DNA of 64,000 nucleotides from Balanoglossus misakiensis (lineage: Eukaryota > Animalia > Hemichordata). Position numbers and translations under genes: made by a program. This document shows positions 1,759 through 63,282 of this stretch, one piece after another (the stretch's first letter is position 1; each line of letters begins with the position of its first letter). Where the stretch lies: positions 6,535,849 through 6,599,848 of the forward strand of contig CM082597.2 in the NCBI GenBank assembly GCA_040954595.2, written 5' to 3'. The notes beneath the pieces are model-generated. The model searched no databases, was not told the origin of the DNA, and saw nothing but the letters and a program-made list of their open reading frames with translations.

Positions 1759-1816
1759 TTAAAAAACAGTACCATACACACATTAGGATCTGAAGAGGAT
1801 GTTGAAGTTGTTTTAA

Positions 1817-1902
1817 CCCTTTCTCCACCATGGTTTGGTCTAATTCCATTGTTCTCCAATGGTAGTGTTGGACCTTTACACAGTGAAATGGGGGTGGAAG
1901 GG
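1817..1902. mobile_element. piggyBac-like ~86-bp MITE (TTAA-CCCTT...AAGGG-TTAA)
   Basis: TTAA on both sides and CCCTT/AAGGG termini. Further copies at 9753-9838, 10483-10568, 18731-18816, 25107-25191 (inverted) and probably 39481-39689 (longer). Confidence 0.7.
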
Positions 1903-3844
1903 TTAAGGAAGTACTCTGAATTGTAGTAAAGAAAATCTGAAAACATATTGTGAAATTATTTATCAACAGACATAACACTCAACTATGAATTCATCATTCA
2001 TCTAAGTGTGATAACATTGTTCCACAAAAAATAACATGGTGGAAAAGTTCAATAAATGTAGTGGACTAAAAAACCACTGGTCCTGTTATAGAGCTGAATT
2101 CTACATGTGTCTTTAAAAACATTAGAAATAAAGAAAAACGTTTAGTGGCATTGAATAAAACTGAAGATTGATGTCCAGAACTGACAGATACAATTGAATG
2201 TTCAGATGTTTCTTTGTTGATCTGTTGTGACCTAAAATTGTTGTGTTAAAGCCCCAGTAATGTTTACATTTGGCTGTTTTTTTCTGTATTTTTCTCTCAT
2301 GCATCAAATCCAGTTTCTTGTTTTACTCTGGAGAGCTTTATGAAATGTTCATTTTTTAGCTTCTCAACAAAGCCTGTATATGAGTAACAGCCACTGTTAT
2401 TGTTGACAAATGAATTGATGTCCTGACTTTAATTCATAATTCAACAATAACAATTGTGATTACTACAAAATAGCTGTGTTGAAAAACCAAAAACTGAGAA
2501 ATTATTTATGTCTCACAGAGAAGAACAAGAAACCACAGTGGATACTGAAAACAATAATATTGAGAAGATAGCCCAAAGTTAGAAGTTACTGGGGTTTTAA
2601 TTGTTTTGTGATACCTGTCCTGATTTCGGTCTGACCCCAACTGGGTGTAGTCAGATTTGTGTCGGTGAAAAGTCACTGTGATGTTTACTGACAAAAATTG
2701 TACAGTACCAAGGAGGTCATGACATGCTCAATAAACAACATGTTATCAGTGTCACCTTGAGAACAGTGGAATTGTTAGTCAGTTAATTGTTAATGTAGCA
2801 ATTGGACAACAGATATACTTTGCTTAATTATGAACCATGTAAAATGTTCACAATTTGTTACAGAAAAAAATGCAAAATTCTTGATAACTTCATAGAAAGT
2901 ACTGATATTTTTGTCAGTAAATTCTTTTTTTGCTGCCACTGTTGACTGCGACATAGTCCCTTCATGAAATACAAATTTTTTCAAAGATACTTTTAACCTT
3001 AAAAAAACACACCACAAAACTATATAAATTGTGTTATCTTGTTTATACTCAGAACCCAAAATTCAAAGTCTCTATTAATGGAGTTCAATAAAAAAAATAT
3101 CAGCTGATGTGAATACTGTATGATTTGCATGTCCCCCTTTGGAAAGATTTGTCATCTTGGGAAAAAAACTACAAGTTTGCTGCCATCTTTCGAATCTGGC
3201 TGACATGGACACAAGTGGGTAAAACATTTCCTCCTTCAAATCTGGGGGTTCTCTCATAAGAATCAAAGAGATATGTCTCTTTTTGGAGAAATCTGTCTAT
3301 TCCAACAGAAATGTCAACTATAGTTGTCAGAGTGTTGTATGCACATGGTCTCTGCAGAAGAATAGGAACCTCAGGCAACCAGTTTGCCGTCATAAGTCAT
3401 TCTACAGTTGGTTTCATGTGCGTGACTTCAGATGTAATCTGAAGTTGAGCGATACATTAGTCATCATCTCAAGTTTTTTGTGACAGCAAGTGTCTGCTTG
3501 TTTTGTTGTTGTTTGTATCAACTGCAGTTTGTTGTTGAAACCCCTACAGCATATGATGAAATGATCAGCCTGTATGTGTACAGATAGCATTATTATTGCT
3601 GAAAATTGAATTGAATTCAATTCCTTGATCAACAATAATAATGATGCACATGTCTAGGTTCTTTCAACAAACTGAACAGTGGCCATTTTACAATAGTGTG
3701 GAATAAGAACTATAGTTCATATTTACAGACAGAAATACTGAAAACAAAACAAATAGTGGGCCTTAATCTACAAACCAATGTGGCATATATGCATCCAGGT
3801 TCTGCCATCACCTTCACATGTAAGCCTTATTTTAGTGAAATACA

Positions 3845-4026
3845 CAGTCAAAAAATCTGTCTAAACCAAACTCAGTCTGATCGAGAAACCTGTCTATACC
3901 GAACACTCTTTCCAGTACCCTTCACATAAAACCACATGTTGAAAGACTCTCTGTAAACCAGACACCTCAAAGCGAACAATATTCTCTCTCCCATTGGTGT
4001 CTGGTTTATAGACAGGTTTCACTACA
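3845..4026. mobile_element. Tc1/mariner(pogo)-like MITE just 3' of the TRIM stop codon
   Basis: Termini CAGT(A)AAA.CTGTCTAAACC ... GGTTTATAGACAGGTTTCACT. Paralogous copies at ~12551-12732 and ~20809-20990, and an independent copy at 41591-41778. Confidence 0.6.
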
Positions 4027-4051
4027 GTTGATACATTGAGATGTGACACTT

Positions 4052-6013
4052 TCACTGTGCAAAGACTTTGAGGCAGTTGTTGCCCCAGTCAGCAACCACT
4101 ACTTCCATGTCATCTGTCACAGCCAAACCTTGTGGGCGATCTAACCCATCCTCAGCTTTATCAATGCGACAGATGAATTTACCTCTGTTGTCAAATTTCT
4201 GCACATTGTTGTTTCTCTTGTCACAGACATACAGATATCCTGCTTTATCAGCCACTATTCCTGTTGGCCAATAAAGCTTACCATCACCTTCACCAAATTC
4301 TCCAAATGCAAACATGAACTCACCATCTGCATTAAATGCTTGAATGCGATTGTTGTTCATGTCTGATACAAACACTACTCCACAACTGTCAACAGTCAAG
4401 AACTCAGGCGCTCTGAACTGTCCGTGTCCTGTGCCAAAACTCCCAAATGATTTGATGTACTGACAATCGTGTGTGTATTTCCAGATGCAGTGACCCTCTT
4501 TGTCTGTGAGGGAATAATCAGCCTTTCCATCCCAATCACTCACATACACACTTCCATCTACAGGACTAATAGCAAGGCGCAGGGGATTCTTGACTTCTTT
4601 CCCAAAGCATTTGATCAGAGACCCATTCTCATCACTCACAACTATTTGTTTGTTTAACCTGTCTGTCATGAAGTATTCATCATCAGCTGATATTGCAACA
4701 TCGGAGGGTGTGAAAGGCTGTGCAAACTGAGTGAATGTGAGACTTGATTTGTAATTCCCATCCCTATCAGTGATTTGTACTCTCTTGTTACTAAATTCAG
4801 CAGTGACAAAGTTTCCGTGTCTGTTAATACTGATACCATTAGGGCTATTGAACTGGCCACCTTTGTTACCTTGACATCCAATGGTCTTCACCAAGCCTTT
4901 CTTTGTCTCTACTGACAGTGAATCTTCACGAAGCAATCCCAGCATTCCTCCATCTTTGGTCTCCTCAGCTGGCTGGAATTTCACCATGTCCACTCTGGCA
5001 TCAATTTTTGTCTCCATGGTGATTATTTCCTCCATGTGATGTATTGTCTCCTGCTTGGTGGCCATGATCTGGGCTGATGTCCCATGATGCATCAGTGTCT
5101 CTATGTAGCAGCGTTGGCTTGCAATGTTGCCATGTTTCAGTTCCCACTCATCTATTAGAGCCTCTGTCTGCTTTACTCTCTGTCCATATTTTGTCTGCAG
5201 CTCTTTAATCAACTGTTTCTCCTCCCTCTGTGCCTTCTGTATGACCTTTGCTGTTTTCTGTCTCACTTTCTGTTCTTCCTCCTGGCATTCGACCATCAGT
5301 GTCTCTCTCTTCAGTTTGGCCAGTGTTGTGCTTGTCTTAGCTCCCCATTCTTTTTCTGTCACCTTACACAGCAGATCTCTCAACTGTTTGGTGTAGTCAT
5401 TTGCAGCATCTTGCAGATCTGTGTTGGTGTGTTTGTTGTGTTTGGTAACAGCACAAGCCGTGCATGCAGAAACCATACAGGTCTCACAGTAGACTTCGAC
5501 AACATTTTCAGGGTGGACACTGCAGAAGACTTTTTGTTGCTTCAGGAGAGTTGACCATTCTGTATTTTTGTATTCATCCAGTGTCATGACCTTGTGACCT
5601 TTCATAAATTTTCTGTGCGGTTTAGTGCAGGAATCACACATATTCACACTGCAGTCGATGCAATAGTGAGTTCCTTCGTTTTCCTCACAGCCATTACACA
5701 CAGAAGGCTTTGAGTCACTCTCTGTAGGACGCTTTTTCAGATAAAGATCGGTCAACGAGTTGATGAAAAAGTTGACTTTCAGTTCAGTCACACCCCCACC
5801 AGGAAGCTGACATGGCGTACTGCATGTTGGGCAGTTCAGCTTACCTTTCTTTGTCACCAGTGTTGTCAGACACGACTCACAGAATGAATGGTCACATGGC
5901 AAGACTTTGGGTTTCTTGAACAGTTCCAGACAGATCGCACAGGAGAGGAAATCCTCACCAAGCTCGTTCAGAACTTTGTCTAACTCGGAACCTCCAGGAT
6001 ATGCTGCAGCCAT
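4052..6013 (-). CDS. TRIM-NHL E3 ubiquitin ligase-like protein (RING, B-box1, B-box2, coiled-coil, 6 NHL repeats), copy 1, intronless CDS
   Basis: Uninterrupted ORF. RING CAIC..PCDHSFC..C..CPTC; B-box1 CNGC..C..C..C..C..H; B-box2 CSVH..YCETC..C..C..H; helical coiled-coil; NHL repeats (GQFxxPxGI, VxDxxNxRIQxF). The track start at 6058 is GTG; the first ATG (aagATGg) is at 6013. Confidence 0.93.
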   Translation of the reverse strand: MAAAYPGGSELDKVLNELGEDFLSCAICLELFKKPKVLPCDHSFCESCLTTLVTKKGKLNCPTCSTPCQLPGGGVTELKVNFFINSLTDLYLKKRPTESDSKPSVCNGCEENEGTHYCIDCSVNMCDSCTKPHRKFMKGHKVMTLDEYKNTEWSTLLKQQKVFCSVHPENVVEVYCETCMVSACTACAVTKHNKHTNTDLQDAANDYTKQLRDLLCKVTEKEWGAKTSTTLAKLKRETLMVECQEEEQKVRQKTAKVIQKAQREEKQLIKELQTKYGQRVKQTEALIDEWELKHGNIASQRCYIETLMHHGTSAQIMATKQETIHHMEEIITMETKIDARVDMVKFQPAEETKDGGMLGLLREDSLSVETKKGLVKTIGCQGNKGGQFNSPNGISINRHGNFVTAEFSNKRVQITDRDGNYKSSLTFTQFAQPFTPSDVAISADDEYFMTDRLNKQIVVSDENGSLIKCFGKEVKNPLRLAISPVDGSVYVSDWDGKADYSLTDKEGHCIWKYTHDCQYIKSFGSFGTGHGQFRAPEFLTVDSCGVVFVSDMNNNRIQAFNADGEFMFAFGEFGEGDGKLYWPTGIVADKAGYLYVCDKRNNNVQKFDNRGKFICRIDKAEDGLDRPQGLAVTDDMEVVVADWGNNCLKVFAQ

Positions 6014-6098
6014 CTTTGCAGCTCGAGTCAAAATGCTTGTAATCACATACCAACACACTGTTCAGTATAGTGTCATTAATTTTGACTGAGTTATGGGG

Positions 6099-6215
6099 TT
6101 TATAAAAACTTGGCAAGCCACCGAAGTCACATGATAAATTGAATTCAGTGATTCAGCAAATACCAGGGTCTACCTAGTACTGGCTGAGTACCTGAGAGTT
6201 GAGGTCAAAAGGTCA
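6099..6215 (-). promoter_or_regulatory. Candidate TRIM promoter: TATA box and nuclear-receptor DR2 element
   Basis: TATAAA on the minus strand at 6099-6104, ~86 bp before the ATG. AGGTCA-AA-AGGTCA at 6202-6215, repeated at 14913-14926 and 23158-23171. Confidence 0.4.
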
Positions 6216-6384
6216 AACTTGAACACAATGTACATGCATGTATCACTGAGAAGAGAATGAATGTAAATATTGACTGGGTACAGTTGACAAATACCGATAT
6301 ATTGAACTGAAAGTGGGACACATCATCACATTATACCAATGAACCGTCCCAGATTTCTTGGTACTCATTAGACATTGTGAGCTG

Positions 6385-6592
6385 TTGGTCTCTTCTTGTA
6401 TTTTCACAAATCTTTGCAAACATTCATTGCAAATTATTTGTCTCTTCTTGTATTTTCACAAATCTTTGCAAACATTCATTGCAAATTATTTGTCTCTTCT
6501 TGTATTTTCACAAATCTTTGCAAACATTCATTGCAAATTATTTGTCTCTTCTTGTATTTTCACAAATCTTTGCAAACATTCATTGCAAATTA
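6385..6592. repeat. 52-bp minisatellite, 4 copies, upstream of TRIM copy 1
   Basis: Unit TTTGTCTCTTCTTGTATTTTCACAAATCTTTGCAAACATTCATTGCAAATTA. Confidence 0.92.
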
Positions 6593-9079
6593 TAAACATA
6601 CACATTGTGTCTGCATGAAAGTTCCATCTCTGGCAACCAATTTCCCGATACAGAATTTGTGTGAGGAATCATATTTCATCCTGATGGATGGTATTATACC
6701 AATAGTGAAATGTGAATTTTTTTCTTGAAGACAACTTGGTGACAACTAACAGTATTACTATAGCAACACTACAAAAATATCCGATCATATTATTATATTT
6801 TTTGCTGCTTGTATATGAAATTAAGTTTCATTTCATTTGGCTTCAATTGCTAGATAAACAGTTTTTGATTAAACTGTCAGTCAGCAATTTCTATTCACTT
6901 CTTATCTCGGCTAGTACAGCTGTTTTTAAACTGGCTGGGGTGTTGAATCCACCCACAAGTTGAGGTCAAAAGTTCTGGAAGTAACACAATGGACAATTCT
7001 TTACACAAAGATAACAGTTGCAAACTTTGACAGAGAATGAAAGAGTTGGCCTATATTGCAGGTTACTGTGTGAGTCAGTGGCTGATTGTATGATACAGTC
7101 TGCAGGATAACCCCTCGATTAGGGCGTGTCTGGTACCAGTGATTTGATTGGCTGTTATCGAGTTATTGGCATGTTCGTCATCGTCTGACAAACCATTTTT
7201 TACATGAGTAGGGGCAAACTTTTCAGGTTTCAAAATCAATTATTTTTTTACATTGCGTGAACAGTTTCTATCATAAATTGATTTTTTTTGTAAACTTTAT
7301 GCGCAAACTAATTATTTTCGCAATGATTTGCGAATGCTGACAACCTCTGTACGCATATCAACCCATGCGTTTAATTTTGCCTACCCTTCACACAAATGGT
7401 TTACACTTCTGCCAAATTCATGTCAACACGAAGTGTCCGGCACAGAGTGTGAATGAAAACAGATAGGGCGAATTTCAAGGACTGTTGTCCTCTCACTGTC
7501 CCACTTTCTGAAGAAAAAAATGTATTTTTTGTTTTTCTATTTGGCGTGGTCTTGCCATGAAATGAAAGAAATGACTGTGAACCAGATTTGAATAGGTTCC
7601 TCAAATAACCACCATATGCATACATACTGAATTGTTTAAAACAATAATTTTTATCTTCAATGGTTTACATGGAACACCATCGATAATAACACCAAGAGAT
7701 TTATCTATCGAAACTAAGTAACTCTCCAATGAAGAAGAACGAATGGAGAGAAAATAAAACGCTGAGTAGAAGCTAGCCTAGACAAAAATGCCTTCTTTGT
7801 AACTTGTCGATCGATCGTATACAACAGCGGCTGTGGACCCGGTTGTGACGGGTTCTGGAGGCTCAGATAAAAAACACGGCCCAAACACGCAGAGTTACGA
7901 CTGATCTGTGATTAAAAAACATGCATTGCCATACGTTTACCTCTAAATGCAACCCGAACTAAAGTACAATTAGCTAAGAACACCGAGGAGATACTTCCGT
8001 ATTAGTCTGCCTCACATGAATGAGCAAATGATCTGCCGTAGACAGACGCTCATTATGCATGACCTGTCAGCCTTTCAACCAATAGACGCAGCTCTGTGGT
8101 ATCACATGACATTATTAATGAGTTGATCTGCACACGTGAGAATTTCCCGCCATGTCACCAGACTTGACATTTACGCCCATTTTTTTTTGCATATTGGAGC
8201 ATATCTGCCAACGCAAAACCTTAAGGGGAGTGACAAATGACATGTGGCGTTCAATAAAATAAAACTGGATTGGACAATGCGGCGCTAAATGCTCACATGA
8301 CCGAAATCCGGCGTGTGTCAATCAATGGTTTTCTATGCATGTCTTCAAACTCATGAGTGTCAAAACAAAATCTGGGTAGGTGGCAAACCGAGAGAGTTGC
8401 ATTTTGAAGCTGAAAGATCCCTGGAGTAAACCATGTCTGGGTGTAGGGGTTTGCACTCTCCTAATGGCTCATATGTTCGAATAAAATGGACTCGAAAATA
8501 ATAGCATTTTCTATCGTTTTCCTCATATTTATATTATACTACGGGCACATCTTACCATTTGACTGCACAATTGACTATTTTTGAATGAAAGGTAATATCA
8601 GAAGGGCGTATTTTTCATACAAGATTGCCGATGTGATTTTTAGACCAAAAAGTACAACATATCAAAGAGAGGCCTGTAAATCCCCCGGAAAATGCACTCT
8701 CTATTTGGTCACGCGGTGAGGACTCCTACAGAACGGTCAGCATCATAGGGCCCGCTTACCGGGACAGTCCATGACTTCCCGAACACGATAGTTGCAGCTT
8801 TTTTTTGCACAGAGTTGACGCCAATCCTGCTAAATCCCCCACAAATGCTCCACCTCCAGAAATCAAATGGTTCTCCCCTTATATCTCCAACCCCAGCAAG
8901 GGAATTTCAATTTTTGTCCTTTGGATTGAAGGTTCAATTGACTCAAGTAATTGGAAAATACAATCACAGTCACTCCACAAAGATGTATAGTGTTAATTCT
9001 CTAGAACTCCAACTTTCAAGTATTAACTGGGGTTTCTTATAAAAATATAAACATATGAAACGTAATAGAATTATGAAAA

Positions 9080-10790
9080 CCTGTTTATTCACCACATCAA
9101 TTTTGCACAACAAATGTATCAGCTGTTAGTCCACACAAACTAAACATGATTACAGTGTATTCTTGGTTATTTAAAAAAAATACTGAATGATTTCACCAAA
9201 AATTGTGGTCCACTAACAAATTTATGTCAAGGCCACTGTTACCTGATAATAAACCCCTCATCAAGAAATCTACAGGAATTTAAACTGGTTACAAAAAAAT
9301 GTTGCTAGCTGTTTGGTCGTAAATTAAAGTTAAGTGGTCGAATGTTCATGTGATAAGTACTGAAGTCAACAGAAACACAGTATAACTCAGTAATGTTTAT
9401 TGTCCAGATTTGTGAGTTATTAGTGTCCATCGATCGTCAACCAAATAATCAATAATTTGCATGTTTGTTGTCCAGATTATTTATGAGTTATAAGTGTATA
9501 TCGTCAAAACCAAAGTCAAGAAAAATAAAGTGAGTACAAAACACGTTGCAAATAATGAATTCTATGATTTCCTGTAAAATGACAAAAAGTTGTTGAAACA
9601 GGAAAATTTGATTAAAGTTCATGAAAGTAGAAAACCACTGATTACAGTCAACACATCACATGTAATCTCAAAAAACTAAAGCTCAAAAACTAAAATGGAT
9701 TAAAAACAGTACCATACACACATTAGGATCTGAAGAGGCTAAGTTGTTTTAACCCTTTCTCCACCATGGTTTGGTCTAACTCCATTGTTCTCCAATGGCA
9801 GAGTTGGACCTTTACACAGTGAAATGGGGGTGAAAGGGTTAAGGAAGTACTCTGAATTGTAGTAAAGAAAATCTGAAAACATATTTTGAAATTATTTATC
9901 AACTGACATTTATAACATTCAGCTATGAATTCATCATTCATCTAAGTGTGATAACATTGTTCAACGAAAAATAACATGGTGGAAATGTTCAATAAATGTA
10001 GTGATCTAAAAAAACACTGGTCATGTCATATAGCTGAATTATAAACTGTTCTTTAAAAAAACATCAAAATATCAAAGAAAAACTGTTTATTCACCACATG
10101 TATATAATTTTTCACTTAAAATGTATCAGCTGTTAGTCCACACAAACTAAACATGATAACAGTGTATTCTTGGTTATTTAAAAAAAAAACCTGAATGATT
10201 TCACCAAAAATTGTGATCCACTAGCAAATTTATGTCAAGGCCACTGTTGAAGAAAATTAAAGTGAGTAAAACACATTGCAAATAATGAATTCTATGGTTT
10301 CCTGTAAAATGACAAAAAGTTGTTGAAACAGGAAAATTTGATTAAAGTTCATGAAAGTAGAAAACCACTGATAACAGTCAACACATTACATGTAATCTCA
10401 AAAACTAAAGCTCAAAAACTAAAATGCATTAGAAAACAGTACCATACATACATTAGGATCTGAAGAGGCTAAGTTGTTTTAACCCTTTCTCCACCATGGT
10501 TTGGTCTAACTCCATTGTTCTCCAATGGTAGTGTTGGACCTTTACACAGTGAAATGGGGGTGGAAGGGTTAAGGAAGTATTCTGAATTGTAGTAAAGAAA
10601 ATCTGAAAACATATTTTGAAATTATTTATCAACAGACATATTTATAACACTCAGCTATGAATTCATCATTCATCTAAGTGTGATAACATTGTTCCACAAA
10701 AAATAACATGGTGGAAAAGTTCAATAAATGTAGTGGACTAAAAAACCATTGGTCCTGTTATAGAGCTGAATTCTACATGTGTCGTTAAAA
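9080..10790. repeat. Unit-2-specific internal tandem duplication, second copy with an internal deletion
   Basis: 'ctgtttattcaccacat' restarts at ~10083, and the sequence from ~9080-10040 is repeated, including the piggyBac-like MITE. Confidence 0.8.
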
Positions 10791-12757
10791 ACATTAGAAA
10801 TAAAGAAAAAAAGTTGTCTGTTTACATCAAAATATCCAAGACTTAGTGGCACTGAATAAAACTGAAGATTGATGTCCAGAACTGACAGATACGAGTGAAT
10901 GTTCGGATGTTTCTTTGTTGATCGGTTGTAACATAAAATTTTTGTGTTAAAGCCCCAGTAATGTTTACGTTTGGGTATTTTTTTCTGTATTTTTCTCTCA
11001 TGCATCGAATCCAGTTTCTTGTTCTTCTCTGGAGAGCTTTGTGAAAAGTTCATTTTTTAGCTTCTCAACAAAGCCTGTATATGAGTAACAGCCACTGTTA
11101 TTGTTGACAAATGAATTGATGTCCTGACTTTAATTCATATTTCAACAATAACAATGGTGATTACTACAAAATAGCTGTGTTGAAAAACCAAAAAACTGAG
11201 AAATTATTTATGTCTCACAGAGAAGAACAAGAAACCACAGCTGATACTGAAAACAATAATATTGAGAAGATTGCCCAAAGTTGGAAGTTACTGGGGTTTT
11301 AATTGTTTTGTGATACCTGTCCTGATTTCGGTCTGACCCCAACTGGGTGTAGTCAGATTTGTGTCGGTGAAAAGTCACTGTAGATTTTTTTACTGACAAA
11401 AATTGTACAGTAACAAGGAGGTCATGACATACTCAATAAACAACATGTTATCAGTGTCACCTTTATAGCAACAGTGGAATTGGTAGTCAGTTAACTGTTA
11501 ATGAAGCAATTGGGCAACAGATATACTTTGCTTTAATTATGAACCTGTAAATGTTCACAATATGTTACAGACAAAATGCAAAACTCTTGATAACTTCATA
11601 AAAAGTACTGATATTTTTTTCAGTAAATTGCCTTTTTGCTGCCACTGTTGACTGCGACATAGTCCCTTCATGAAATAAAAATCTTTTCAAACATACTTGT
11701 AAACCTAAAAACCCACACCACAAAACTATTTTACGTAATCTTGGTTATACTCAGAACCCAAAATTCATAGTCTCTACATGGAGTTCAATAAAAAAAATAT
11801 CAGCTGATGTGAATACTGTATGATTTGCATGTCCCCCCTTTGGAATGATTTGTCATGTCAGGAAAAACACTACAAGATTGCTGCCATCTTTCCAATCAGG
11901 CTGACATGGACACAAGTGGGTAAAACATTTCCTCCTTCAAATCTGGGGGTTCTCTCATAAGAATCAAAGAGATGTCTCTTTTGGGAGAAATCTGTCTATT
12001 CCAACAGAAATGTCAACTCTAGTTGTGAGAGTGTTGTATGAACATGGTCTCTGCAGAAGAATAGGAAGCTCAGGCAACCAGTTTGCCGTCATAAGTCATT
12101 CTACAGTTGGTTTCATGTGCGTGACTTTCAGATGCAATCTGAAGTTGAGCGATCCATTAGTCATCATCTCAAGTTTTTTTTGTGACATCAAGTGTCTGCT
12201 TGTTTTGTTGTTGTTTGTATCAACTGCAGTTTGTTGTTGAAACCCCTACAGCATATGATGAAATGATCAGCCTATATGTGTACAGATAAGCATTATTATT
12301 GCTGAAATTGGAATTTAATTCAATTCCTTTATCAACAATAATAATAATTCACATGTCTAGGTTCTTTCAACAAACTGAACAGTGGCCATTTTAGAATGGT
12401 ATTATAGTGTGGAATTAGAACTCTAGTTCATATTTACAGACAGAAATACTGAAAAAACAAATAATGGGCCTTAATCTACAAACCAATGTGGCATATATGC
12501 ATCCAGGTACTGCCATCACCTTCACATGTAAGCCTTATTTCAGTGAAATACAGTAAAATCTGTCTAAACCAAACTCAGTCTGATCGAGAAACCTGTCTAT
12601 ACCGAACACTCTTTCCAGTGCCCTTCACATAAAACCACATGTTGAAAGACTCTCTGTAAACCAGACACCTCTGCAAAGCAAATAATATTCTCACTCCCAT
12701 TGGTGTCTGGTTTATAGACAGGTTTCACTACAGTTGATACATTGAGATGTGACACTT

Positions 12758-14725
12758 TCACTGTGCAAAGACTTTGAGGCAGTGATTGCCCCAGTCAGCA
12801 ACCACTACTTCCATGTCATCTGTCACAGCTACACCATGTGGGCGATCTAACCCATCCTCAGCTTTATCAATGCGACAGATGAATTTACCTCTGTTGTCAA
12901 ATTTCTGCACATTGTTGTTTTTCCCATCACTGACATACAGATATCCTGCTTTATCAGCCACTATTCCTTTTGGCCAATAAAGCTTACCATCACCTTCACC
13001 AAATTCTCCAAATGCAAACATGAACTCACCATCTGCATTAAATGCTTGAATGCGATTGTTGTTCTTGTCTGATACAAACACTACTCCACAAGTGTCAACA
13101 GTCAAGAACTCAGGCCCTCTGAGCTGTCCCTGTCCTCTGCCCAAACTACCAAATGATTTGATGTACTGACAATCATGTGTGTATTTCCTGATGCAGTTAC
13201 CCTCTTTGTCTGTGAGGGAATCATCAGCCTTTCCATCCCAATCACTCACATACACACTTCCATCTACAGGACTAATAGCAAGGCGGTAGGGATTCTTGAC
13301 TTCTTTCCCAAAGCATTTGATCAGAGACCCATTCTCATCACTCAAAACTATTTGTTTGTTATTCCTATCTGTCATGAAGTATTCATCATCAGCTGATATT
13401 GCAACATCGAGGGGTCTGAAAGGCTGTGCAAACTGAGTGAATGTGAAACTTGATTTGTATTTCCCATCCCTGTCAGTGATTTGTACTCTCTTGTTACTAG
13501 CATCAGCAGTGACAAAGTTTCTGTGTCTGTTAATACTGATACCTAGAGGGCGATTGAACTGCCCACCTTTGTTACCTTTACATCCAATGGTCTTCACCAA
13601 GCCTTTCTTTGTCTCTACTGTCACTGAATCTTCACGAAGCAATCCCAGCATTCCTCCATCTTTAGTCTCCTCAGCTGGCTGGAATTTCACCATGTCCACT
13701 CTGGCATCAATTTCTACATGTATCTCCATGGAAATAATTTCCTCCATGTGATGTATTGTCTCCTGCTTGGTGGCCAGGATCTGGGCTGGTGTCCCATGAT
13801 GCATCAGTGTCTCTATGTAGCAGCGTTGGCTTGCAATGTTGCCATGTTTCAGTTCCCACTCATCTATTAGAGCCTCCGTCTGCTTTACTCTCTGTCCATA
13901 TTTTGTCTGCAGCTCTTTAATCAACTGTTTCTCCTCCCTCTGTGCCTTCTGTATGACCTTTGCTGTTTTCTGTCTCACTTTCTGTTCTTCCTCCTGGCAT
14001 CTGACCATCAGTTTCTGTCTCATCAGTTTGGCATCTGTTTTACTTCTCTCTGCTCCAAGTTCTTTTTCGGTCACCTTACACAGCAGATCATTCAACTGTT
14101 TGGTGTAGTCATTTGCAGCATCTTGCAGATCTGTGTTGGTGTGTTTGTTGTGTTTGGTAACAGCACAAGCCGTGCATGCAGAAACCATACAGGTCTCACA
14201 GTAGACTTCGACAACATTTTCTGGATGGACACTGCAGAAGACTTTTTGTTGCTTCAGGAGAGTTGACGATTCTGTATTTTTGTATTCATCCAGTGTCATG
14301 ACCTTATGACCTTTCAGAATTTTTCTGTGTGGTTTAGTGCAGGAATCACACATATTCACACTGCAGTCCATGCAATAGTGAGTTCCATCATTTTCTTCAC
14401 ATCCGTTGCACACAGAAGGCTTTGAGTCACTCTCTGTAGGACGCTTTTTCAGATAAAGATCCGTCAAAGAGTTGATGAAAAAGTTGACTTTCAGTTCAGT
14501 CACACCCCCACCAGGAAGCTGACATGGCGTACTGCATGTTGGGCAGTTCAGCTTACCTTTCTTTGTCACCAGTGTTATCAGACACGACTCACAGAATGAA
14601 TGGTCACATGGCAAGACTTTGGGTTTCTTGAACAGTTCCAGACAGATCGCACAGGAGAGAAAATCCTCACCAAGCTCGTTCAGAACTTTGTCTAACTCGG
14701 AACCTCCAGGATATGCTGTAGCCAT
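12758..14725 (-). CDS. TRIM-NHL protein, copy 2, intronless CDS
   Basis: Same domain order as copy 1 and an intact ORF. ATG at 14725 (MATAYPGG). Confidence 0.93.
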   Translation of the reverse strand: MATAYPGGSELDKVLNELGEDFLSCAICLELFKKPKVLPCDHSFCESCLITLVTKKGKLNCPTCSTPCQLPGGGVTELKVNFFINSLTDLYLKKRPTESDSKPSVCNGCEENDGTHYCMDCSVNMCDSCTKPHRKILKGHKVMTLDEYKNTESSTLLKQQKVFCSVHPENVVEVYCETCMVSACTACAVTKHNKHTNTDLQDAANDYTKQLNDLLCKVTEKELGAERSKTDAKLMRQKLMVRCQEEEQKVRQKTAKVIQKAQREEKQLIKELQTKYGQRVKQTEALIDEWELKHGNIASQRCYIETLMHHGTPAQILATKQETIHHMEEIISMEIHVEIDARVDMVKFQPAEETKDGGMLGLLREDSVTVETKKGLVKTIGCKGNKGGQFNRPLGISINRHRNFVTADASNKRVQITDRDGKYKSSFTFTQFAQPFRPLDVAISADDEYFMTDRNNKQIVLSDENGSLIKCFGKEVKNPYRLAISPVDGSVYVSDWDGKADDSLTDKEGNCIRKYTHDCQYIKSFGSLGRGQGQLRGPEFLTVDTCGVVFVSDKNNNRIQAFNADGEFMFAFGEFGEGDGKLYWPKGIVADKAGYLYVSDGKNNNVQKFDNRGKFICRIDKAEDGLDRPHGVAVTDDMEVVVADWGNHCLKVFAQ

Positions 14726-15085
14726 CTTTGCAGTTCGTGTCAAAATGCTTGTAATCACATAGCAACACACTGTTCAGTATAGTGTCATTAATTTTGACTG
14801 AGTTAGGGGTTTATAAAAACTTGGCAAGCCACCAAAGTCACATGATAAATTGAATTCAGTGATTCAGGAAATACCAGGGTCTACCTAGTACTGGCTGAGT
14901 ACCTGAGAGTTGAGGTCAAAAGGTCAAACTTGAACACAATGAATCACTGAGACGAGAATGAATGTAAACTTATACCAGGTACAGTTGACAAATACCGATA
15001 TATTGAACTGAAAGTGGGACACATCATCACATTATACCAATGAACCGTCCCAGATTTCTTGGTACTCATTAGACATTGTGAGCTG

Positions 15086-15189
15086 TTTGTCTCTTCTTGT
15101 ATTTTCACAAATCTTTGCAAACATTCATTGCATATTATTTGTCTCTTCTTGTATTTTCACAAATCTTTGCAAACATTCATTGCAAATTA
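15086..15189. repeat. 52-bp minisatellite, 2 copies, upstream of TRIM copy 2
   Basis: Same unit as 6385-6592. Confidence 0.9.
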
Positions 15190-15879
15190 TAAACATACAC
15201 ATTGTGTCTGCATGAAAGTTCCATCTCTGGCAACCAATTTCCCAATACAGAATTTGTGTAAGGAACCATATTTCTTCATGATGGATGGTATTATACCTAT
15301 AGTGAAATATGATTGCTGACAACTAACAGTGTTACTATAGCAACACTACAAAAATATCAGACCATATTATTATATTTTTTGCTGCTTGTATATGAAATTA
15401 AGTTTCATTTCATTTGGCTTCATTTCCTAGATAAACAGTTTTTGATTTTACTGTTAGTCAGCAATTTCTATTCACTTGTTATCTCGGCTAGTACAGCTGT
15501 TTTTAAACTGGCTGGGGTGTTGAATCCACCCACAAGTTGAGGTCAAAAGTTCTGGAAGTAACACAATGGACAATTCTTTACACAAAGATAACAGTTGGAA
15601 ACTTTGACAGAGAATGAAAGAGTTGGCCTATATTGCAGGTTACTGTGTGAGTCAGTGGCTGATTGTATGATACAGTCTGCACGATAACCCCTCGATTAGG
15701 GCGTGTCTGGTACCAGTGATTTGATTGGCTGTTATCGAGTTATTGGCATGTTCGTCATCGTCTGACAAACCATTTTTAACATGAGTAGGGGCAAACTTTC
15801 ACGTTTCAAAATCCATTACTCTTTTACATTGCGTGAACAGTTTCAATCATGAATTGATTTTTTTGTAAACTTTACGACT

Positions 15880-16235
15880 AAATATTTTCGCAATGATTTG
15901 CGTATGCTGACAACCTATGTACGCATATCAACCCCTGCGCTTAATTTTGCCTACCCTCCACACAAATGGTTTACACTTCTGCCAAATTCATGTCAACACG
16001 AAGTGTCCGGCACAGAGTGTGAATGAAAATAGATAGGACGAATTTCAAGGACTGTAAACTTATTATTTTCGCAATGATTTGCGAATGCTGACAACCTCTG
16101 TACGCATATCAACCCATGCGCTTAATTTTGCCTACCCTCCACACAAATGGTTTACACTTCTGCCAAATTCATGTCAACACGAAGTGACCGGCACAGAGTG
16201 TGAATGAAAATAGATAGGACGAATTTTAAGGACTG
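15880..16235. repeat. ~180-bp tandem duplication
   Basis: 'attttcgcaatgatttgcg..aggactg' occurs twice here and once at ~7314-7485. Confidence 0.8.
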
Positions 16236-17290
16236 TTGTCCTCGCACTGTCCCACTTTCTGAAAACTTATCATTTTTATTTTTTGTTTTTCTATTTGGCA
16301 TAGTCTTGCCATGAATTGAAAGAAATGACTGTGAACCAGATTTGAATAGGTTCCTCAAATAACCACCATATGCATACATACTGAATTGTTACAACATGTA
16401 ATTTTTATCTTCAATGGTTTACATGGAACACCATAGATAATAACACCAAGAGATTCATCTATCGAAACTAATTAACTTTCTAATGAAGAAAAACGAATGG
16501 AGAGAAAATAAAACGCTGAGTAGGAGCTAGCCTTGACAAAAATGCCTAATTTGTAACCGCGCACACTTGTCGATCGATCGTATACAACAGCGGCTGTGAA
16601 CCCTGTTGTGACTGGTTCTGGAGGCTCAGATAAAAAACACGGCCCTAACACGCAGAGTTACGACTGATCTGTGATTAAAAAACATGCATTGACATACGTT
16701 TACCTCTAAATGCAACCCGAACTAAAGTACAATTAGCTAAGAACACCGAGGAGATACTTCCGTATTAGTCTGCCTCACATGAATGAGCAAATGATCTACC
16801 GTACACAGACGCTCATTATGCATGACCTGCCAGCCTTTCAACCAATAGATGCAGCTCTGTGGTATCACATGACATTATTAATGAGTTGATCTGCACACGT
16901 GAGAATTTCCCGCCATGTCACCAGACTTGACATTTACGCCCATTTTTTTAGCATATTGGAGCATATCTGCCAACGTAAAACTTTAAGGGGAGTGACAAAT
17001 GACAAGCTGCATTCAATAAAATAAAACTGGATTGGACAATGCGGCGCTAAATGCTCACATGACCGAAATCCAGCGTGTGTCAATCAATGGTTTTCTATGC
17101 ATGTCTTCAAACTCACGTGTTCCAAAACAAAATCTGGGTAGGCGGCAAACTGAGAGAGTTGCATTTTGAAGCTGAAAGATCCCTGGAGTCAACCATGTCT
17201 GGGTGTAGGGGTTTGCACTCTCCTAATAGCTCATACGTTCGAATAAAATGGACTCGAAAATAATAGCATTTTCTATCGTTTTCCTCATAT

Positions 17291-17632
17291 TTATATTATA
17301 CTACGGGCACATCTTACCATTTGACTGAACAATTGACTATTTTGGAATGAAAGGTCATATCAGAAGGGCGTATTTTTCATACAAGATTGCCGATATGATT
17401 TTTAGACCAAAAAGTACAACATATCAAAGAGAGGCCTGTAAATCCCGCGGAAAATGCACTCTATATTATACTACGGGCACATCTTACCATTTGACTGCAC
17501 AATTGACTATTTTGAAATGAAAGGTAATATCAGAAGGGCGTATTTTTCATACAAGATTGCCGATATGATTTTTAGACCAAAAAGTACAACATATCAAAGA
17601 GAGGCCTGTAAATCCCCCGGAAAATGCACTCT
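17291..17632. repeat. ~170-bp tandem duplication
   Basis: 'tatattatactacgggcacatc...ggaaaatgcactc' occurs twice here and once at ~8530-8700. Confidence 0.85.
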
Positions 17633-20600
17633 CTATTTGGTCATGTGGTGAGGACTCCTACGGAACAGGCAGCATCGCAGGACCCGCTTACCGGGACAGT
17701 CCATGACTTTCCGAACATGATAGTTGCAGCCTTTTTTGTACAGAGTTGACGCCAATCCTGCTAAATCCCCCACAAATGCTCCACCTCCAGAAATCAAATG
17801 GTTCTCCCCTTATATCTGCAACCCCAGCAAGGGAATTTCAATTTTTGTACTTTGGATTGAAGGTCCCATTGACTCAAGTAATTGCAAAATACAATCACAG
17901 TCACTCCACAAAGATGTATAGCGTTAATTCTCTAGAACTCCAACTTTCAAGTATTAACTGGGGTTTCTTATAAAAATATAAACATATGAAACGTAATAGA
18001 ATTATGAAAACCTGTTTATTCACCACATCAATTTTGCACAACAAATGTATCAGCTGTTAGTCCACACAAACTAAACATGATTACAGTGTATTCTTGGTTA
18101 TTTAAAAAAAAATGAAAGATTTCATCAAAATTTGTGGTCCACTAACAAATTTATGTCAAGGCCACTGTTGACCTGATAATAAACCCCTCATCAAGAAATC
18201 TACAGGAATTTCAGCTGGTTACAAAAAAATGTTGCTAGCTGTTTGGTCGTAAATTAAAGTTAAGTGGTCCAATGTTCATGTGATAAGTACTGAAGTCGAC
18301 AGAAACACAGTGTCTTGGTGATTACATTAACATACAATAGGTCTCAAATCAGTCAACCAAACAACTCAGTAATGTTCATTGTTCAGATTTGTGAGTTATA
18401 AGTGTCTATCAATCGTCAACCAAATAATCAATAATTTGCATGTTTGTTGTCCAGATTATTTATGAGTTATAAGTGTATATCGTCAAAACGAAAGTCAAGA
18501 AAAATAAAGTGAATACAACACGTTACAAATAATGAATTCTATGATTTCCTGTAAAATGACAAAAAGTTGTTGAAACAGGAAAATTTGATTAAAGTTCATG
18601 AAAGTAGAAAACCACTGATTACAGTCAACACATCACATGTAATCTCAAAAAACTAAAGCTCAAAAACTAAAATGGATTAAAAAACAGTACCATACACACG
18701 TTAGGATCTGATGAGGCGAAGTTGCTTTAACCCTTTCTCCACCATGGTTTGGTCTAACTCCATTGTTCTCCAATGGCAGAGTTGGACCTTTACACAGTGA
18801 AATGGGGGTGGAAGGGTTAAGGAAGTTCTCTGAATTGTAGTAAAGAAAATCTGAAAACATATTGTGAAATTATTTATCAACAGACATATTTATAACACTC
18901 AGCTATGAATTCATCATTCATTAAAGTGTGATAACATTGTTCCACAAAAAATAACATGGTGGAAATGTTCAAGAAATGTAGTAATCTAAAAAACATTGGT
19001 CTTGTTATAGAGCTGAATTATATATGTGTCTACTCTTTAAAAACATGAAAAATCGAGAAAAAAATTGTCTGTTTACATCAAAATATCAAAGACTTAGTGG
19101 CACTGAATAAAACTGAAGATTGATGTCCAGAACTGACAGATACGAGTGAATGTTCAGATGTTTCTTTGTTGATCTGTTGTGACATAAAATTGTTGTGTTA
19201 AAGCCCCAGTAATGTTTACGTTTGGATTTTTTTTTCTGTATTTTTTTCTCATGCATCAAATCCAGTTTCTTGTTCTTCTCTGGAGAGCTTTGTGAAATGT
19301 TCATTTTTTAGCTTCTCAACAAAGCCTGTATAAGAGTAACAGCCACTGTTATTGTTGACAAATGAATTGATGTCTTGACTTTAATTCATATTTAAACAAT
19401 AACACTGTTGATTACTACAAAATAGCTGTGTTGAAAAAACAAAAACTGAGAAATTGTTTAAGTCTCACAGAGAAGAACAAGAAGCCACAGATGATACTGA
19501 AAACAATAATATTGAGAAGATAGCCCAAAGTTGGAAGTTACTGGGGTTTTAATTGTTTTGTGATACCTGTCCTGATTTCCGTCTGACCCCAACTGGGTGT
19601 AGTCAGATTTGTGTCGGTGAAAAGTCACTGTAGATTTTTTGACTGACAAAAATTGTACAGTAACAAGTAGGTCATGACATACTCAATAAACAACATGTTA
19701 TCAGTGTCACCTAGGCAACAGTGGAATTGTTAGTCAGTTAACTGTTAATGTAACAATTGGACAACAGATATACTTTGCTTTAATTATGAACCATGTTAAT
19801 GTTCAGAATATGTTGCAGACAAAATGCCAAACTCTTGATAACTTCATATAATGTACTGATATTTTTGTCAGTAAATTCCTTTTCTGCTGCCACTGTTGAC
19901 TGTGACATAGTCCCTTCATGAAATACAAATCATTTCAATAATACTTGTAAACTTAATAAAAAACCTACACCACAAAAAAAATTAAAAATTGTGTAATCTT
20001 TGTTATACTCAGAACCCAAAATTCAAAGTCTCAATATTGAGTTCAATAAAAGAAATATCAGCTGATGTGAATACTGTATGATTTGCATGTCCCCCTTTGG
20101 AAAGATTTGTCATCTCAGGAAAAAAAAAACTACAAGTTTGCTGCCATCTTTCCAATCAAGCTGACATGGACACAAATGGGTAAAACATTTCCTCCTTCAA
20201 ATCTGGGGGTTCTCTCATAAGAATCAAAGAGATGTCTCTTTTGGGATAAATCTGTCTATTCCAACAGAAATGTCAACTATAGTTGTGAGAGTGTTGTATG
20301 CACATGGTCTCTGCAGAAGAATAGGAACCTCAGGCAACCAGTTTGCCGTCATAAGTCATTCTACAGTTGGTTTCATGTGCGTGACTTCAGATGCAATCTG
20401 AAGTTGAGCGATACATTAGTCATCATCTCAAGTTTTTTGTGACAGCAAGTGTCTGCTTGTTTTGTTGTTGTTTGTGTATCAACTGCAGTTTGTTGTTGAA
20501 ATCCCTACAGCATATGATGAAATGATCAGCCTGTATGTGTACAGATAGTATTATTATTGCTGAAAATTGAATTGAATTGAATTCCTTTATCAGCAATAAT

Positions 20601-21015
20601 AATGATGCATATGTCTGGGTTCTTTCAACAAACTGAACAGTGGCCATTTTAGAATGGTATTATAGTGTGGAATACGAACTCTAGTTCATATATACAGACA
20701 GAAATACTGAAAAAACAAATAGTGGGCCTTAATCTACAAACCAATGTGGCATATATGCATCCAGGTTCTGCCATCACCTTCACATGTAAGCCTTATTTCA
20801 GTGAAATACGGTAAAATCTGTGTAAACCAAACTCAGTCTGATCGAGAAACCTGTCTATACCGAACACTCTTTCCAATGCCCTTCACATAAAACCACATGT
20901 TGAAAGACCCTCTGTAAACCAGACACCTCTGCAAAGCGAACAATATTCTCACTCCCATTGGTGTCTGGTTTATAGACAGGTTTCACTACAGTTGATACAT
21001 TGAGATGTGACACTT

Positions 21016-22968
21016 TCACTGTGCAAAGACTTTGAGGCAGTCGTTGCCCCAGTTAGCAACCACTACTTCCATGTCATCTGTCACAGCTACACCTTGTGGG
21101 CGATCTAACCCATCCTCAGCTTTATCAATGCGACAGATGAATTTACCTCTGTTGTCAAATTTCTGCACCTTCATGTCATCACAGACATACAGATATCCTG
21201 CTTTATCAGCCACTATTCCTGTTGGCCAATAAAGCTTACCATCACCTTCACCAAATTCTCCAAATGCAAACAGGAACTCACCATCTGCATTAAATGCTTG
21301 AATGCGATTGTTGTTCATGTCTGATACAAACACTACTCCACAACTGTCAACAGTCAAGAACTGAGGCCCTCTGAACTGTCCCTGTCCTGTGCCCAAACTC
21401 CCAAATGATTTGATGTACTGACAATCATGTGTGTATTTCCTGATGCAGTTACCCTCTTTGTCTGTGTCAGTATCAATCTTTCCATCCCAATCACTCACAT
21501 ACACACTTCCATCTACAGGACTAATAGCAATTCGGTTGCGATTCTTGACTTCTTTCCCAAAGCATTTGATCAGAGACCCATTCTCATCACTCACAACTAT
21601 TTGTTTGTTATACCAATCTGTCATGAAGTATTCATCATCAGCTGATATTGCAACATCAAAGGGTGTGAAAGGCTGTGCAAACTGACTGAATGTGAAACTT
21701 GATTTGTATTTCCCATCCCTGTCAGTGATTTGTACTCTCTTGTTATCAGCATCAGCAGTGACAAAGTTTCCGTGTCTGTTAATACTGATACCATGAGGGT
21801 AATTGAACTGGCCACCTTTGTTACCTTGACATCCAATGGTCTTCACCAAGCCTTTCTTTGTCTCTACTGACACTGAATCTTCACGGAGGAATCCCAGCAT
21901 TCCTCCATCTTTGGTCTCCTCAGCTGGCTGGAATTTCACCATGTCCACTCTGGCATCAATTTCTGTCTCCATGGAGATAATTTCCTCCATGTGATGTATT
22001 GTCTCCTGCTTGGTGGCCATGATCTGGGCTGGTGTCCCATGATGCATCAGTGTCTCTATGTAGCAGCGTTGGCTTGCAATGTTGCCATGTTTCAGTTCCC
22101 ACTCATCTATTAGAGCCTCCGTCTGCTTTACTCTCTGTCCATATTTTGTCTGCAGCTCTTTAATCAACTGTTTCTCCTCCCTCTGTGCCTTCTGTATGAC
22201 CTTTGCTGTTTTCTGTCTCACTTTCTGTTCTTCCTCCTGGCATTCGACCATCAGTGTCTCTCTCTTCAGTTTGGCCAGTGTTGTGCTTGTCTTTGCTCCC
22301 CATTCTTTTTCTGTCACCTTACACAGCAGATCTCTCAACTGTTTGGTGTAGTCATTTGCAGCATCTTGGAGATCTCTGTTGGTGTGTTTGGGACTTGGAT
22401 GTTTGGTAACAGCACAAGCTGTGCATGCAGAAACCATACAGGTCTCACAGTAGACTTCCACCACATTTTCTGGATGGACACTGCAGAAGACTTTTTGTTG
22501 CTTCAGGAGAGTTGACGATTCTGTATATTTGTATTCATCCAGTGTCATGACCTTGTGACCTTTCAGAAACTTCTGGTGTGATTTTGTGCAGGAAGTGCAT
22601 AGCCTTTCACTGCAGTCAATACATTGGTGAGATGCTGCATTATCTCCACAGCCACTGCACATAGACTTGGCCTGTCCTTCGGGACCTTGTCTCTGATAAA
22701 GATCGACCAACGAGTTGATGAAAAAGTTACCTTTCAATTGAGGCACTCCACCAGCAGGAAGTTTACATACCTCACGGCATGTCGGACACTTCAACCGACC
22801 TTTTCCTTTCACCAACTTTATCAGACACGACTCACAGAATGAATGGTCACATGGCAAGACTTTGGGTTTCTTGAACAGTTCCAGACAGATCGCACAGGAG
22901 AGGAAATTCTCACCAAGCTCTTTCAGAATGTTGTCTAACTCGGAACCTCTAGGATATGCTGCAGCCAT
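21016..22968 (-). CDS. TRIM-NHL protein, copy 3, intronless CDS, divergent RING-to-B-box1 segment
   Basis: Same domain order and an intact ORF. ATG at 22968 (MAAAYPRG). Confidence 0.93.
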   Translation of the reverse strand: MAAAYPRGSELDNILKELGENFLSCAICLELFKKPKVLPCDHSFCESCLIKLVKGKGRLKCPTCREVCKLPAGGVPQLKGNFFINSLVDLYQRQGPEGQAKSMCSGCGDNAASHQCIDCSERLCTSCTKSHQKFLKGHKVMTLDEYKYTESSTLLKQQKVFCSVHPENVVEVYCETCMVSACTACAVTKHPSPKHTNRDLQDAANDYTKQLRDLLCKVTEKEWGAKTSTTLAKLKRETLMVECQEEEQKVRQKTAKVIQKAQREEKQLIKELQTKYGQRVKQTEALIDEWELKHGNIASQRCYIETLMHHGTPAQIMATKQETIHHMEEIISMETEIDARVDMVKFQPAEETKDGGMLGFLREDSVSVETKKGLVKTIGCQGNKGGQFNYPHGISINRHGNFVTADADNKRVQITDRDGKYKSSFTFSQFAQPFTPFDVAISADDEYFMTDWYNKQIVVSDENGSLIKCFGKEVKNRNRIAISPVDGSVYVSDWDGKIDTDTDKEGNCIRKYTHDCQYIKSFGSLGTGQGQFRGPQFLTVDSCGVVFVSDMNNNRIQAFNADGEFLFAFGEFGEGDGKLYWPTGIVADKAGYLYVCDDMKVQKFDNRGKFICRIDKAEDGLDRPQGVAVTDDMEVVVANWGNDCLKVFAQ

Positions 22969-23330
22969 CTTTGCAGCTTGAGTCAAAATGCTTGTAATCA
23001 CATAGCAACACACTGTTCAGTATAGTGTCATAATTTTTTGGCTGAGTTATGGGGTTTATAAAAACTTGGCAAGCCACCAAAGTCACATGATAAATTGAAT
23101 TCAGTGATTCAGCAAATACCAGGGTCTACCTAGTACCGGCTGAGTACCTGAGAGTTGAGGTCAAAAGGTCAATCTTGAACACAATGAATCACTGAGAAGA
23201 GAATGAATGTAAACTTTGACTGGGTACAGTTGACAAATACCGATATATTGAACTGAAAGTGGGACACATCATCACATTATACCAATGAACCGTCCCAAAT
23301 TTCTTGGTACTCATTAGACATTGTGAGCTG

Positions 23331-23486
23331 TTTGTCTCTTCTTGTATTTTCACAAAACTTTGCAAACATTCATTGCAAATAATTTGTCTCTTCTTGTATT
23401 TTCACAAATCTTTGCAAACATTCATTGCAAATTATTTGTCTCTTCTTGTATTTTCACAAATCTTTGCAAACATTCATTGCAAATTA
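23331..23486. repeat. 52-bp minisatellite, 3 copies, upstream of TRIM copy 3
   Basis: Same unit as 6385-6592. Confidence 0.9.

Positions 23487-25594: not shown

Positions 25595-63282
<37,688 letters not shown>

Follow-up and report, generated by a model that had tools for sequence, protein, structure and literature searches.

The window, a stretch of 64,000 nucleotides from the acorn worm Balanoglossus misakiensis, carries on its minus strand three uninterrupted single-exon open reading frames in tandem. These encode proteins of 653 (copy 1, 4052..6013), 655 (copy 2, 12758..14725) and 650 amino acids (copy 3, 21016..22968), each with a RING, two B-boxes, a coiled coil and an NHL domain in that order. 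The tandem TRIM-NHL paralogues of the original prediction are thus borne out, while the span given there, 4052..21853, takes in just the NHL part of copy 3, whose gene reaches 22968. The copies lie in duplicated blocks that are 91-95% alike. The block with copy 1 (1756..7485) is 92% alike, gaps counted, to 10426-16055, and the block with copy 3 occupies 18497..23768, similarity to the other units stopping near 23768 at the right edge of the array. An extra spacer copy at 2..1025, with 95% similarity to 17658-18685 and 91% to 8726-9706, suggests that the array extends to the left of the window. For the neighbouring EGF/VWC gene, a signal-peptide exon was looked for within the window and none was found. 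Upstream of the copies there is no enrichment of interferon-response-type motifs, and a 10-mer seen three times there was rejected, as two of the occurrences lie in the upstream DNA of copies 1 and 2, which is homologous, and 6 of 100 shuffles reach three.

Class VII TRIM-NHL proteins are defined by a C-terminal six-bladed NHL propeller (PMC9732051), and the three copies belong to this class by RING, B-boxes, coiled coil and propeller alike. The Pfam zf-C3HC4 model is matched over cut-off in all three RINGs with the eight zinc ligands all present, zf-B_box is matched over cut-off in two stretches, and the coiled coil appears as a helix at residues 200-310 of the predicted model. The C-terminal region matches PF01436 and is modelled with 24 strands, the nearest solved folds being the NHL domains of TRIM2 and TRIM3 (TM 0.92); in copy 2 the propeller spans 12761..13612 on the minus strand, approximately residues 372-655, with pLDDT mostly >90. 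None of the three copies, copy 1 included, matches the filamin domain PF00630, and about 40 residues separate coiled coil and propeller. A filamin domain before the NHL is found in all human class VII members but TRIM32, and is usual rather than defining. The copies also have no Pfam match to B30.2/PRY-SPRY; they resemble TRIM5 and the finTRIMs in evolution and are not members of class IV. The best PDB sequence match of the RING is the RING of TRIM56. The linchpin arginine of active RINGs sits after the last cysteine and corresponds to R64 of TRIM2, whose mutation abolishes activity; this position is Arg in copy 3 and Ser in copies 1 and 2, and of the 76 acorn-worm relatives whose RING is readable just 28 have Arg. 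The expectation of RING E3 ligases is accordingly weakened, ligase activity being doubtful for copies 1 and 2.

The description of spacers and coding sequences as near-identical was overstated, as the flanking DNA of the three copies differs by 3.7-5.5% and the copies are recombinant mosaics, a point missing from the earlier interpretation. Copy 3 diverges from copies 1 and 2 over the RING and B-box 1 (dS 0.35-0.37) in a minus-strand tract at approximately 22570..22818, which contains the linchpin Arg and where 69 of the 80 variable sites in 300 nt set copy 3 apart. The tract probably derives from another paralogue by conversion. Copy 2 has a private patch in the coiled coil at 14000..14092 on the same strand (residues ~212-242), where 18 of the 20 variable sites in 200 nt are specific to that copy. 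A runs test for mosaicism gives p=2e-4 on raw sites and p=0.9 after neighbouring sites are collapsed, a step biased against clustering, so that the tracts are argued from counts per 100 nt. Donors of both tracts were sought among proteins of other species and none was found. Inside the NHL, the sites at which a given copy is the odd one out do not cluster.

Variation within the propeller was assessed at 30 top-face positions taken from the contacts in the zebrafish LIN41-RNA crystal (P-2, P-1, P+1, D+1 and D+2 of each blade; residues 391/392/394/409/410 of copy 2 and their equivalents), a set fixed by the crystal structure rather than by the data tested. Assignment to one face rests on alignment to these contacts together with secondary structure, and the mapping is validated by the TRIM71 orthologue P0095, which keeps the LIN41 residues in the same columns at 30/30 positions. 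The corresponding 30-position strings of the three copies mismatch this set and lack the conserved basic upper-face contacts that mark the TRIM71/LIN41 stem-loop binders. Among the three copies 16 of the 30 top-face columns vary, compared with 28 of 252 others (Fisher p=2.7e-7), and with the model's secondary structure the counts are 11/122 at other strand positions and 3/55 in bottom loops. The blade motifs quoted earlier were found in the alignment and the predicted location of variable sites on the ligand-binding top face is upheld under this mapping. Their description as loop residues needs one correction, since P+1, which varies in all six blades, opens strand a in the model and is not strictly loop. 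The claim of many multi-nucleotide changes is tempered, as these account for a minority of variable NHL columns (13/44). An insert in blade 3 and a gap in blade 5 are ambiguous in the alignment. The net charge of the top face is +3 in copy 1, +6 in copy 2, the most basic of the three, and 0 in copy 3, whose face is neutral and rich in aromatics. Contigs assembled from a DNA run contain additional variants, with 9 of 21 new letters in contact codons. Depth in these contigs is approximately 400-600 for shared pieces and 30-60 for rare pieces, a hint of more copies that does not give a copy number.

At the DNA level, the tests for selection draw on only three coding sequences. Nonsynonymous change (pN) at the 30 top-face positions is 0.21-0.28 against a flank divergence of 0.045-0.055, and when codons are counted once, 10-12 of 28 contact codons differ compared with ~3 expected under full neutrality (p 2e-5 to 1e-3), an excess of 3-4-fold. 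In codon models built for this analysis, the NHL is better described by M2a than by M1a (p=1e-8), and each of the 13 sites with posterior >0.5 is a contact or top-loop position. Once ambiguous columns are dropped and a codon may change at several nucleotides at once, M2a retains p=0.011, and a fixed partition gives an omega of 5.2 (p=1.5e-4). Overall, top-face omega lies between 5 and 9 and is robust to multi-nucleotide changes, while the remaining NHL is just moderately constrained (0.5-1.0 by model). The RING/B-box region shows no such signal in the same models. The coiled coil likewise passes M2a (p=0.005), a signal that comes from the one patch in copy 2 and indicates that patchy conversion is able to trigger this test. 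Synonymous change (pS) is 0.06-0.09 in top loops and 0.02-0.03 elsewhere in the NHL, and synonymous-only changes in top loops are not enriched (4/8 versus 2.9 expected). The positive selection proposed earlier is thus supported by change in excess of flanks and synonymous sites, but omega above 1 becomes marginal (p=0.03, 0.08 and 0.049) when contact sites receive their own free rate, as if older than the rest, and is not significant for wider top-loop windows treated in the same way (p=0.11). Selection is concentrated on the ligand-binding surface, as in TRIM5/finTRIM-like factors, marginally so in the free-rate test. Such selection signifies conflict or diversification, and not immunity as such.

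The nearest relatives of the three copies are acorn-worm proteins (61%), most of which have a filamin domain, unlike the copies themselves. A quick tree, from which six redundant or partial Saccoglossus rows were left out, shows repeated species-specific expansions, and the large, expanding family envisaged earlier is corroborated in acorn worms. Of 33 disjoint pairs of close paralogues from Ptychodera, Glandiceps and Saccoglossus, 27 have excess change at the 30 positions (p<0.01 each), a contrast somewhat inflated by the choice of pairs that diverge little at non-contact positions; the six pairs with no excess include the closest relatives P0002/P0009 (1/30). In the 25 closest pairs, top-face differences amount to 319/731 (44%) compared with 7% in the strands and in both bottom loops, a turnover of the face between paralogues that are otherwise 90% alike, and changes recur at identical offsets about every 45 codons in many independent clades. 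Orthologue controls behave in the opposite manner, with P0095 keeping the LIN41 face intact and a cnidarian pair differing at 0/30 top-face and 52/241 other positions. Tyr, Trp and Phe make up 21% of top-face positions and 3% of bottom loops. Across 90 relatives the net charge of the face ranges from -3 to +8, which argues that the family has kept no basic RNA pocket in common.

Several other explanations bear on these observations. Haplotypes laid end to end by the assembly are a very improbable source of the tandem copies; the blocks are similar enough for such an artefact, but three copies and part of a fourth unit with unequal spacers and repeat counts speak against it, as do the DNA-run contigs, in which copy-1-type letters occur alongside further new variants. 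It is quite unlikely that exposed positions merely drift in redundant copies while short conversion tracts from distant paralogues bring in old residues. The conversion-like tracts in copies 3 and 2, the marginal free-rate test and the somewhat higher pS of top loops are in keeping with this account, but drift is capped at the neutral rate, which contact codons exceed, and bottom loops do not vary. Same-offset changes across independent clades, the lack of synonymous-only enrichment and the unclustered odd-one-out copy within the NHL also oppose it, and for single codons to keep their old residues in the face of conversion, selection would be required anyway.

Propellers that bind RNA like those of LIN41 and Brat, and that diversify against viral or transposon RNAs in order to repress or destroy them, are an unlikely alternative. 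The variable positions are exactly the LIN41 RNA contacts, copy 2 gains basic residues, aromatic plus basic residues fit RNA binding too, and the linchpin is absent from many RINGs; NHL surfaces are documented to have been reshaped to suit different RNAs (available part of PMC5908797) and TRIM56 binds viral RNA (available part of PMC11768893). This is countered by the missing shared basic pocket, with copy 3 neutral and relatives down to -3, by the conservation of known RNA-binding faces between orthologues, as in P0095, and by the closest folds, TRIM2 and TRIM3, whose surfaces, in the accessible text of PMC5908797, lack conservation shared with LIN41 or Brat. Diversification toward various host substrates, or toward a conflict partner outside immunity such as selfish-element, gamete or self-recognition proteins, is quite unlikely. 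NHL domains of the TRIM2/3/32 type bind host proteins, genetic conflicts other than infection likewise leave positive selection, and there is no convincing excess of interferon-type motifs upstream, but slowly evolving host substrates fail to explain species-specific expansions with such turnover of the face.

The tandem copies with top-face variation are confirmed, with the above corrections, and the earlier reading of an expanding ligase family with a variable, immune recognition surface is partly supported. The best reading is a family that evolves by birth and death, with diversifying selection acting on the binding face, similar to TRIM5 and the finTRIMs but on an NHL propeller. Taken together, the top-face excess in the array and in close pairs of three acorn worms suggests a sensor repertoire for invaders inside the cell, and the three copies are probably members of a large, tandemly duplicating TRIM-NHL family of intracellular sensors or restriction factors whose top face outpaces neutral DNA. 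The foreign ligand would differ from one propeller to the next and would most likely be a protein of viral or microbial origin. By analogy with TRIM biology, the coiled coil would dimerise and bring two propellers onto the target, the B-boxes may form higher-order assemblies, and the RING would then ubiquitinate the target or signal. Copies 1 and 2, without the linchpin Arg, would be weak ligases or need a partner, for instance copy 3, for which the dependence of TRIM3 on TRIM2 provides a model. Duplication would supply copies, point changes under diversifying selection would remodel the binding face, and other modules may be exchanged when one copy converts another. More tentatively, acorn worms could possess a germline repertoire of dozens of NHL intracellular receptors with an antibody-like, aromatic-rich face, weakened-RING sensors beside catalytic copies and conversion-swapped modules, as an invertebrate counterpart of TRIM5/finTRIM. 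Proteins so alike, with differences at 16 defined positions, would form a directly testable set for ligand finding.

Class VII, or subfamily C, includes TRIM2, TRIM3, TRIM32, TRIM71/LIN-41, Thin/Abba, Mei-P26 and Brat, with which the copies share the order of RING, B-box, coiled coil and C-terminal six-bladed propeller. Those are few conserved genes with a conserved top face, whereas here many species-specific tandem copies have a hypervariable one, lack filamin, carry two B-boxes and often miss the linchpin Arg. Published expanded immune families of invertebrates are, to our knowledge, mostly TLR, NLR, SRCR, C1q and RLR, and a hypervariable TRIM-NHL array was not found in the literature searched; the available portions of PMC12373286, PMC7653742, PMC9646362, PMC4346834 and PMC9334734 do not mention diversification of NHL TRIMs. 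A cytoplasmic TRIM repertoire that evolves this fast would be a new recognition scaffold, on a propeller otherwise familiar from conserved RNA binding in development. TRIM56, according to the available part of PMC11768893, has an NHL-like domain that binds viral RNA and proteins in antiviral restriction, and resembles the copies in its RING-Bbox-CC plus C-terminal NHL-like arrangement and its RING; it is a single gene, and its NHL-like domain is absent from the sequence matches. In evolution the closest parallels are the class IV, B30.2-bearing TRIM5alpha/TRIM22, finTRIM, btr and trim35/hltr families, described in the accessible text of PMC3137616 as tandem arrays with hypervariable, positively selected ligand-binding loops and inter-copy recombination. 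Recognition there is by B30.2/PRY-SPRY, and here would be by an NHL propeller in an invertebrate family. Such a repertoire would suggest that the arms-race strategy of TRIM proteins is older than the B30.2 TRIMs of vertebrates.

The hypervariable top face of the three tandem TRIM-NHL genes is a real feature, and it is delimited here by positions chosen independently of the copies. Kumari et al. (PMC5908797) describe 14 LIN41 residues that touch RNA, all of which, counted along the 6fpt chain, fall at offsets P-2, P-1, P+1, D+1 or D+2 from the conserved Pro and Asp of an NHL blade, and these five offsets in six blades give a test set of 30 positions. The column mapping is checked by the TRIM71 orthologue P0095, which carries the LIN41 contact residues in exactly the same alignment columns and equals zebrafish at 30/30. 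Among the copies, 16 of the 30 contact positions vary compared with 28 of 252 other NHL columns (p=2.7e-7), bearing out the original prediction that variable residues gather on the top face. Elsewhere in the NHL domain, variation reaches 11/122 other strand positions, 3/55 bottom-loop positions and 8/23 of the remaining b-c top loops, and more than one nucleotide is changed in 13 of the 44 variable columns.

Copies 1, 2 and 3 are uninterrupted minus-strand ORFs (4052-6013, 653 aa; 12758-14725, 655 aa; 21016-22968, 650 aa) encoding a RING, two B-boxes, a coiled coil and NHL repeats, an architecture that is class VII TRIM-NHL; a domain search found no filamin domain in them. The near-identity claimed for the spacers and most of the coding sequence calls for qualification: the duplicated blocks are 91-92% alike (gaps counted), the flanks are 3.7-5.5% different and the RING/B-box1 of copy 3 lies at dS 0.35-0.37 from the other copies. 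The spacer is repeated in the window's first kilobase, and the array therefore likely extends to the left. Some 370 bases ahead of its ATG, each gene has a tandem repeat of 52-base units (6388-6593, four units; 15086-15190, two; 23331-23487, three), which provides a marker telling the array units apart. Copies 1 and 2 each have a CpG-richer stretch 1-3 kb upstream (7000-9000, 15500-18000), and another lies at 1000-2000. As copy 3 shares only ~800 bases of upstream DNA with the other copies, without the CpG-richer stretch, it may use another promoter or lack one altogether.

At the contact positions pN is 0.21-0.28, compared with 0.03-0.04 for the remaining NHL positions; pS over the NHL is 0.03-0.05 and flank divergence ~0.05. 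In our own implementation of codon models for the three copies, M2a is favoured over M1a for the NHL domain (2dL=36.9), all 13 sites with posterior >0.5 being at contact or top-loop positions, and no sites are flagged in the RING/B-box; the coiled coil also passes (p=0.005) because of a divergent patch in copy 2. With 14 alignment-ambiguous columns removed and double and triple changes allowed, M2a retains p=0.011, and omega is 5.2 under a fixed partition (p=1.5e-4). Positive selection, as originally proposed, is upheld by these models but only marginally when contact sites are given their own rate (omega>1 at p 0.03, 0.08 and 0.049; p=0.11, not significant, on wider loop windows), because these sites offer only ~15 synonymous sites.

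The pattern recurs in other acorn worms. Of 97 named proteins, 90 have a full NHL domain, and 27 of 33 disjoint close pairs (each <25% divergent at non-contact positions) have changed more than expected at the contact positions, at the protein level only (p<0.01 each); the six exceptions include two pairs of near-identical records and P0002/P0009, the pair closest to copies 1-3. In the 25 closest pairs, change peaks at P-1, P+1, D+1 and D+2 and affects 319/731 contact positions, 216/3030 strand positions, and 50/739 and 46/625 bottom-loop positions, a contrast somewhat inflated by picking pairs for low divergence elsewhere. A cnidarian pair picked likewise differs at 0/30 contact positions and 52/241 others, so the contact positions are not inherently loose. 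The top face of the cnidarian TRIM-NHL pair P0080/P0083 is fully conserved and unlike that of LIN41, which may be read as an orthologous group with a conserved ligand.

AlphaFold (70-row input alignment) models copy 2 at a mean pLDDT of 85.8, most of the propeller being >90. The modelled propeller has 24 strands and is closest to the TRIM2/TRIM3 NHL (TM 0.92), followed by LIN41 and Brat. Private changes in the copy 2 propeller (12761-13612) mostly introduce basic residues (Lys/Arg number 39, compared with 31 in copy 1 and 32 in copy 3), a directional charge shift. The best 74 of 108 protein matches (P0001-P0074) all come from Ptychodera, Glandiceps or Saccoglossus, with a highest identity of 61%, which points to an enteropneust as the likely source. 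A quick tree built from 95 NHL domains joins copies 1-3 in one clade (support 98) nearest to three Ptychodera proteins (support 99), and splits the acorn-worm entries into many species-specific clades. Two Ptychodera members, P0064 and P0130, lack a RING and combine precomputed PF01335, the death effector domain, with filamin and NHL, which may link this propeller family to death-fold signalling.

The RING zinc ligands are intact in the copies. The residue equivalent to TRIM2 R64, whose mutation is reported to abolish activity (PMC9732051), is Ser in both copy 1 and copy 2; in copy 3 it is Arg and falls within the divergent tract of that copy, and Arg is also present in 28/76 relatives. Since an inactive TRIM3 RING is described as rescued by pairing with TRIM2 (PMC9732051), a division into sensor and catalytic copies is a possibility.

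To the right, a plus-strand, many-exon kielin/VWCE-like gene (25597-63300) carries dozens of EGF/calcium-binding EGF exons and, after them, von Willebrand type C repeats. A splice acceptor precedes its first visible exon, and the part of the window to the left of that exon yielded no signal-peptide exon; the TRIM array may therefore lie antisense within an intron of this gene. Two MITE-like palindromic families of ~355 bases (A: 2246-2600, 10947-11302, 19198-19552, 28702-29046; B: 25880-26243, 33819-34172, 39014-39383, 43684-44037) and a ~210-base repeat with about ten occurrences from 26800 to 63100 are interspersed.

We somewhat favour the reading that diversifying selection rewrites the propeller top face and that the proteins would act as intracellular sensors or restriction factors. 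An assembly artefact is very improbable: contigs from one DNA run, with variants listed only away from contig ends, aligned to the copy 2 NHL carry 21 of 34 listed letters missing from the window's copies, nine of them in contact codons. Drift with conversion is unlikely. Tracts in copy 3 (RING/B-box1, where 69 of the 80 sites variable within 300 nt are specific to copy 3) and copy 2 (coiled coil, 18 of 20 private within 200 nt) do look like conversion from other paralogues, for which donors were not found among the proteins of other species; within the contact set, 10-12 of 28 codons, counted once each, differ, where fully neutral change at the flank rate would give ~3, and synonymous-only changes show no top-loop enrichment (4/8 versus 2.9 expected).

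Binding of viral or transposon RNA is a minority possibility. RNA remains compatible with the top face, where net charge is +3, +6 and 0 in copies 1, 2 and 3 and ranges from -3 to +8 in 90 relatives, but no shared basic pocket is kept across these proteins, so the residues point rather to a variety of ligands, probably proteins. Tyr, Trp and Phe together account for 21% of contact positions versus 3% of bottom loops. That the changing ligands are instead host or non-immune conflict substrates is rather doubtful. The immune step of the favoured sensor or restriction-factor reading is drawn by analogy.

In mostly open-access literature, no description was found of an NHL face that is hypervariable and under positive selection, whether in acorn worms or in another invertebrate; domain-expansion tables supplied with genome papers may list the family. 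Marin (PMC3503706) notes that TRIM genes have expanded in tandem in animals, perhaps in connection with external aggression, and mentions extra subfamily C genes for Branchiostoma. The systems behind the immune analogy are TRIM5 and the finTRIMs (PMC3137616) and TRIM56 (PMC11768893).
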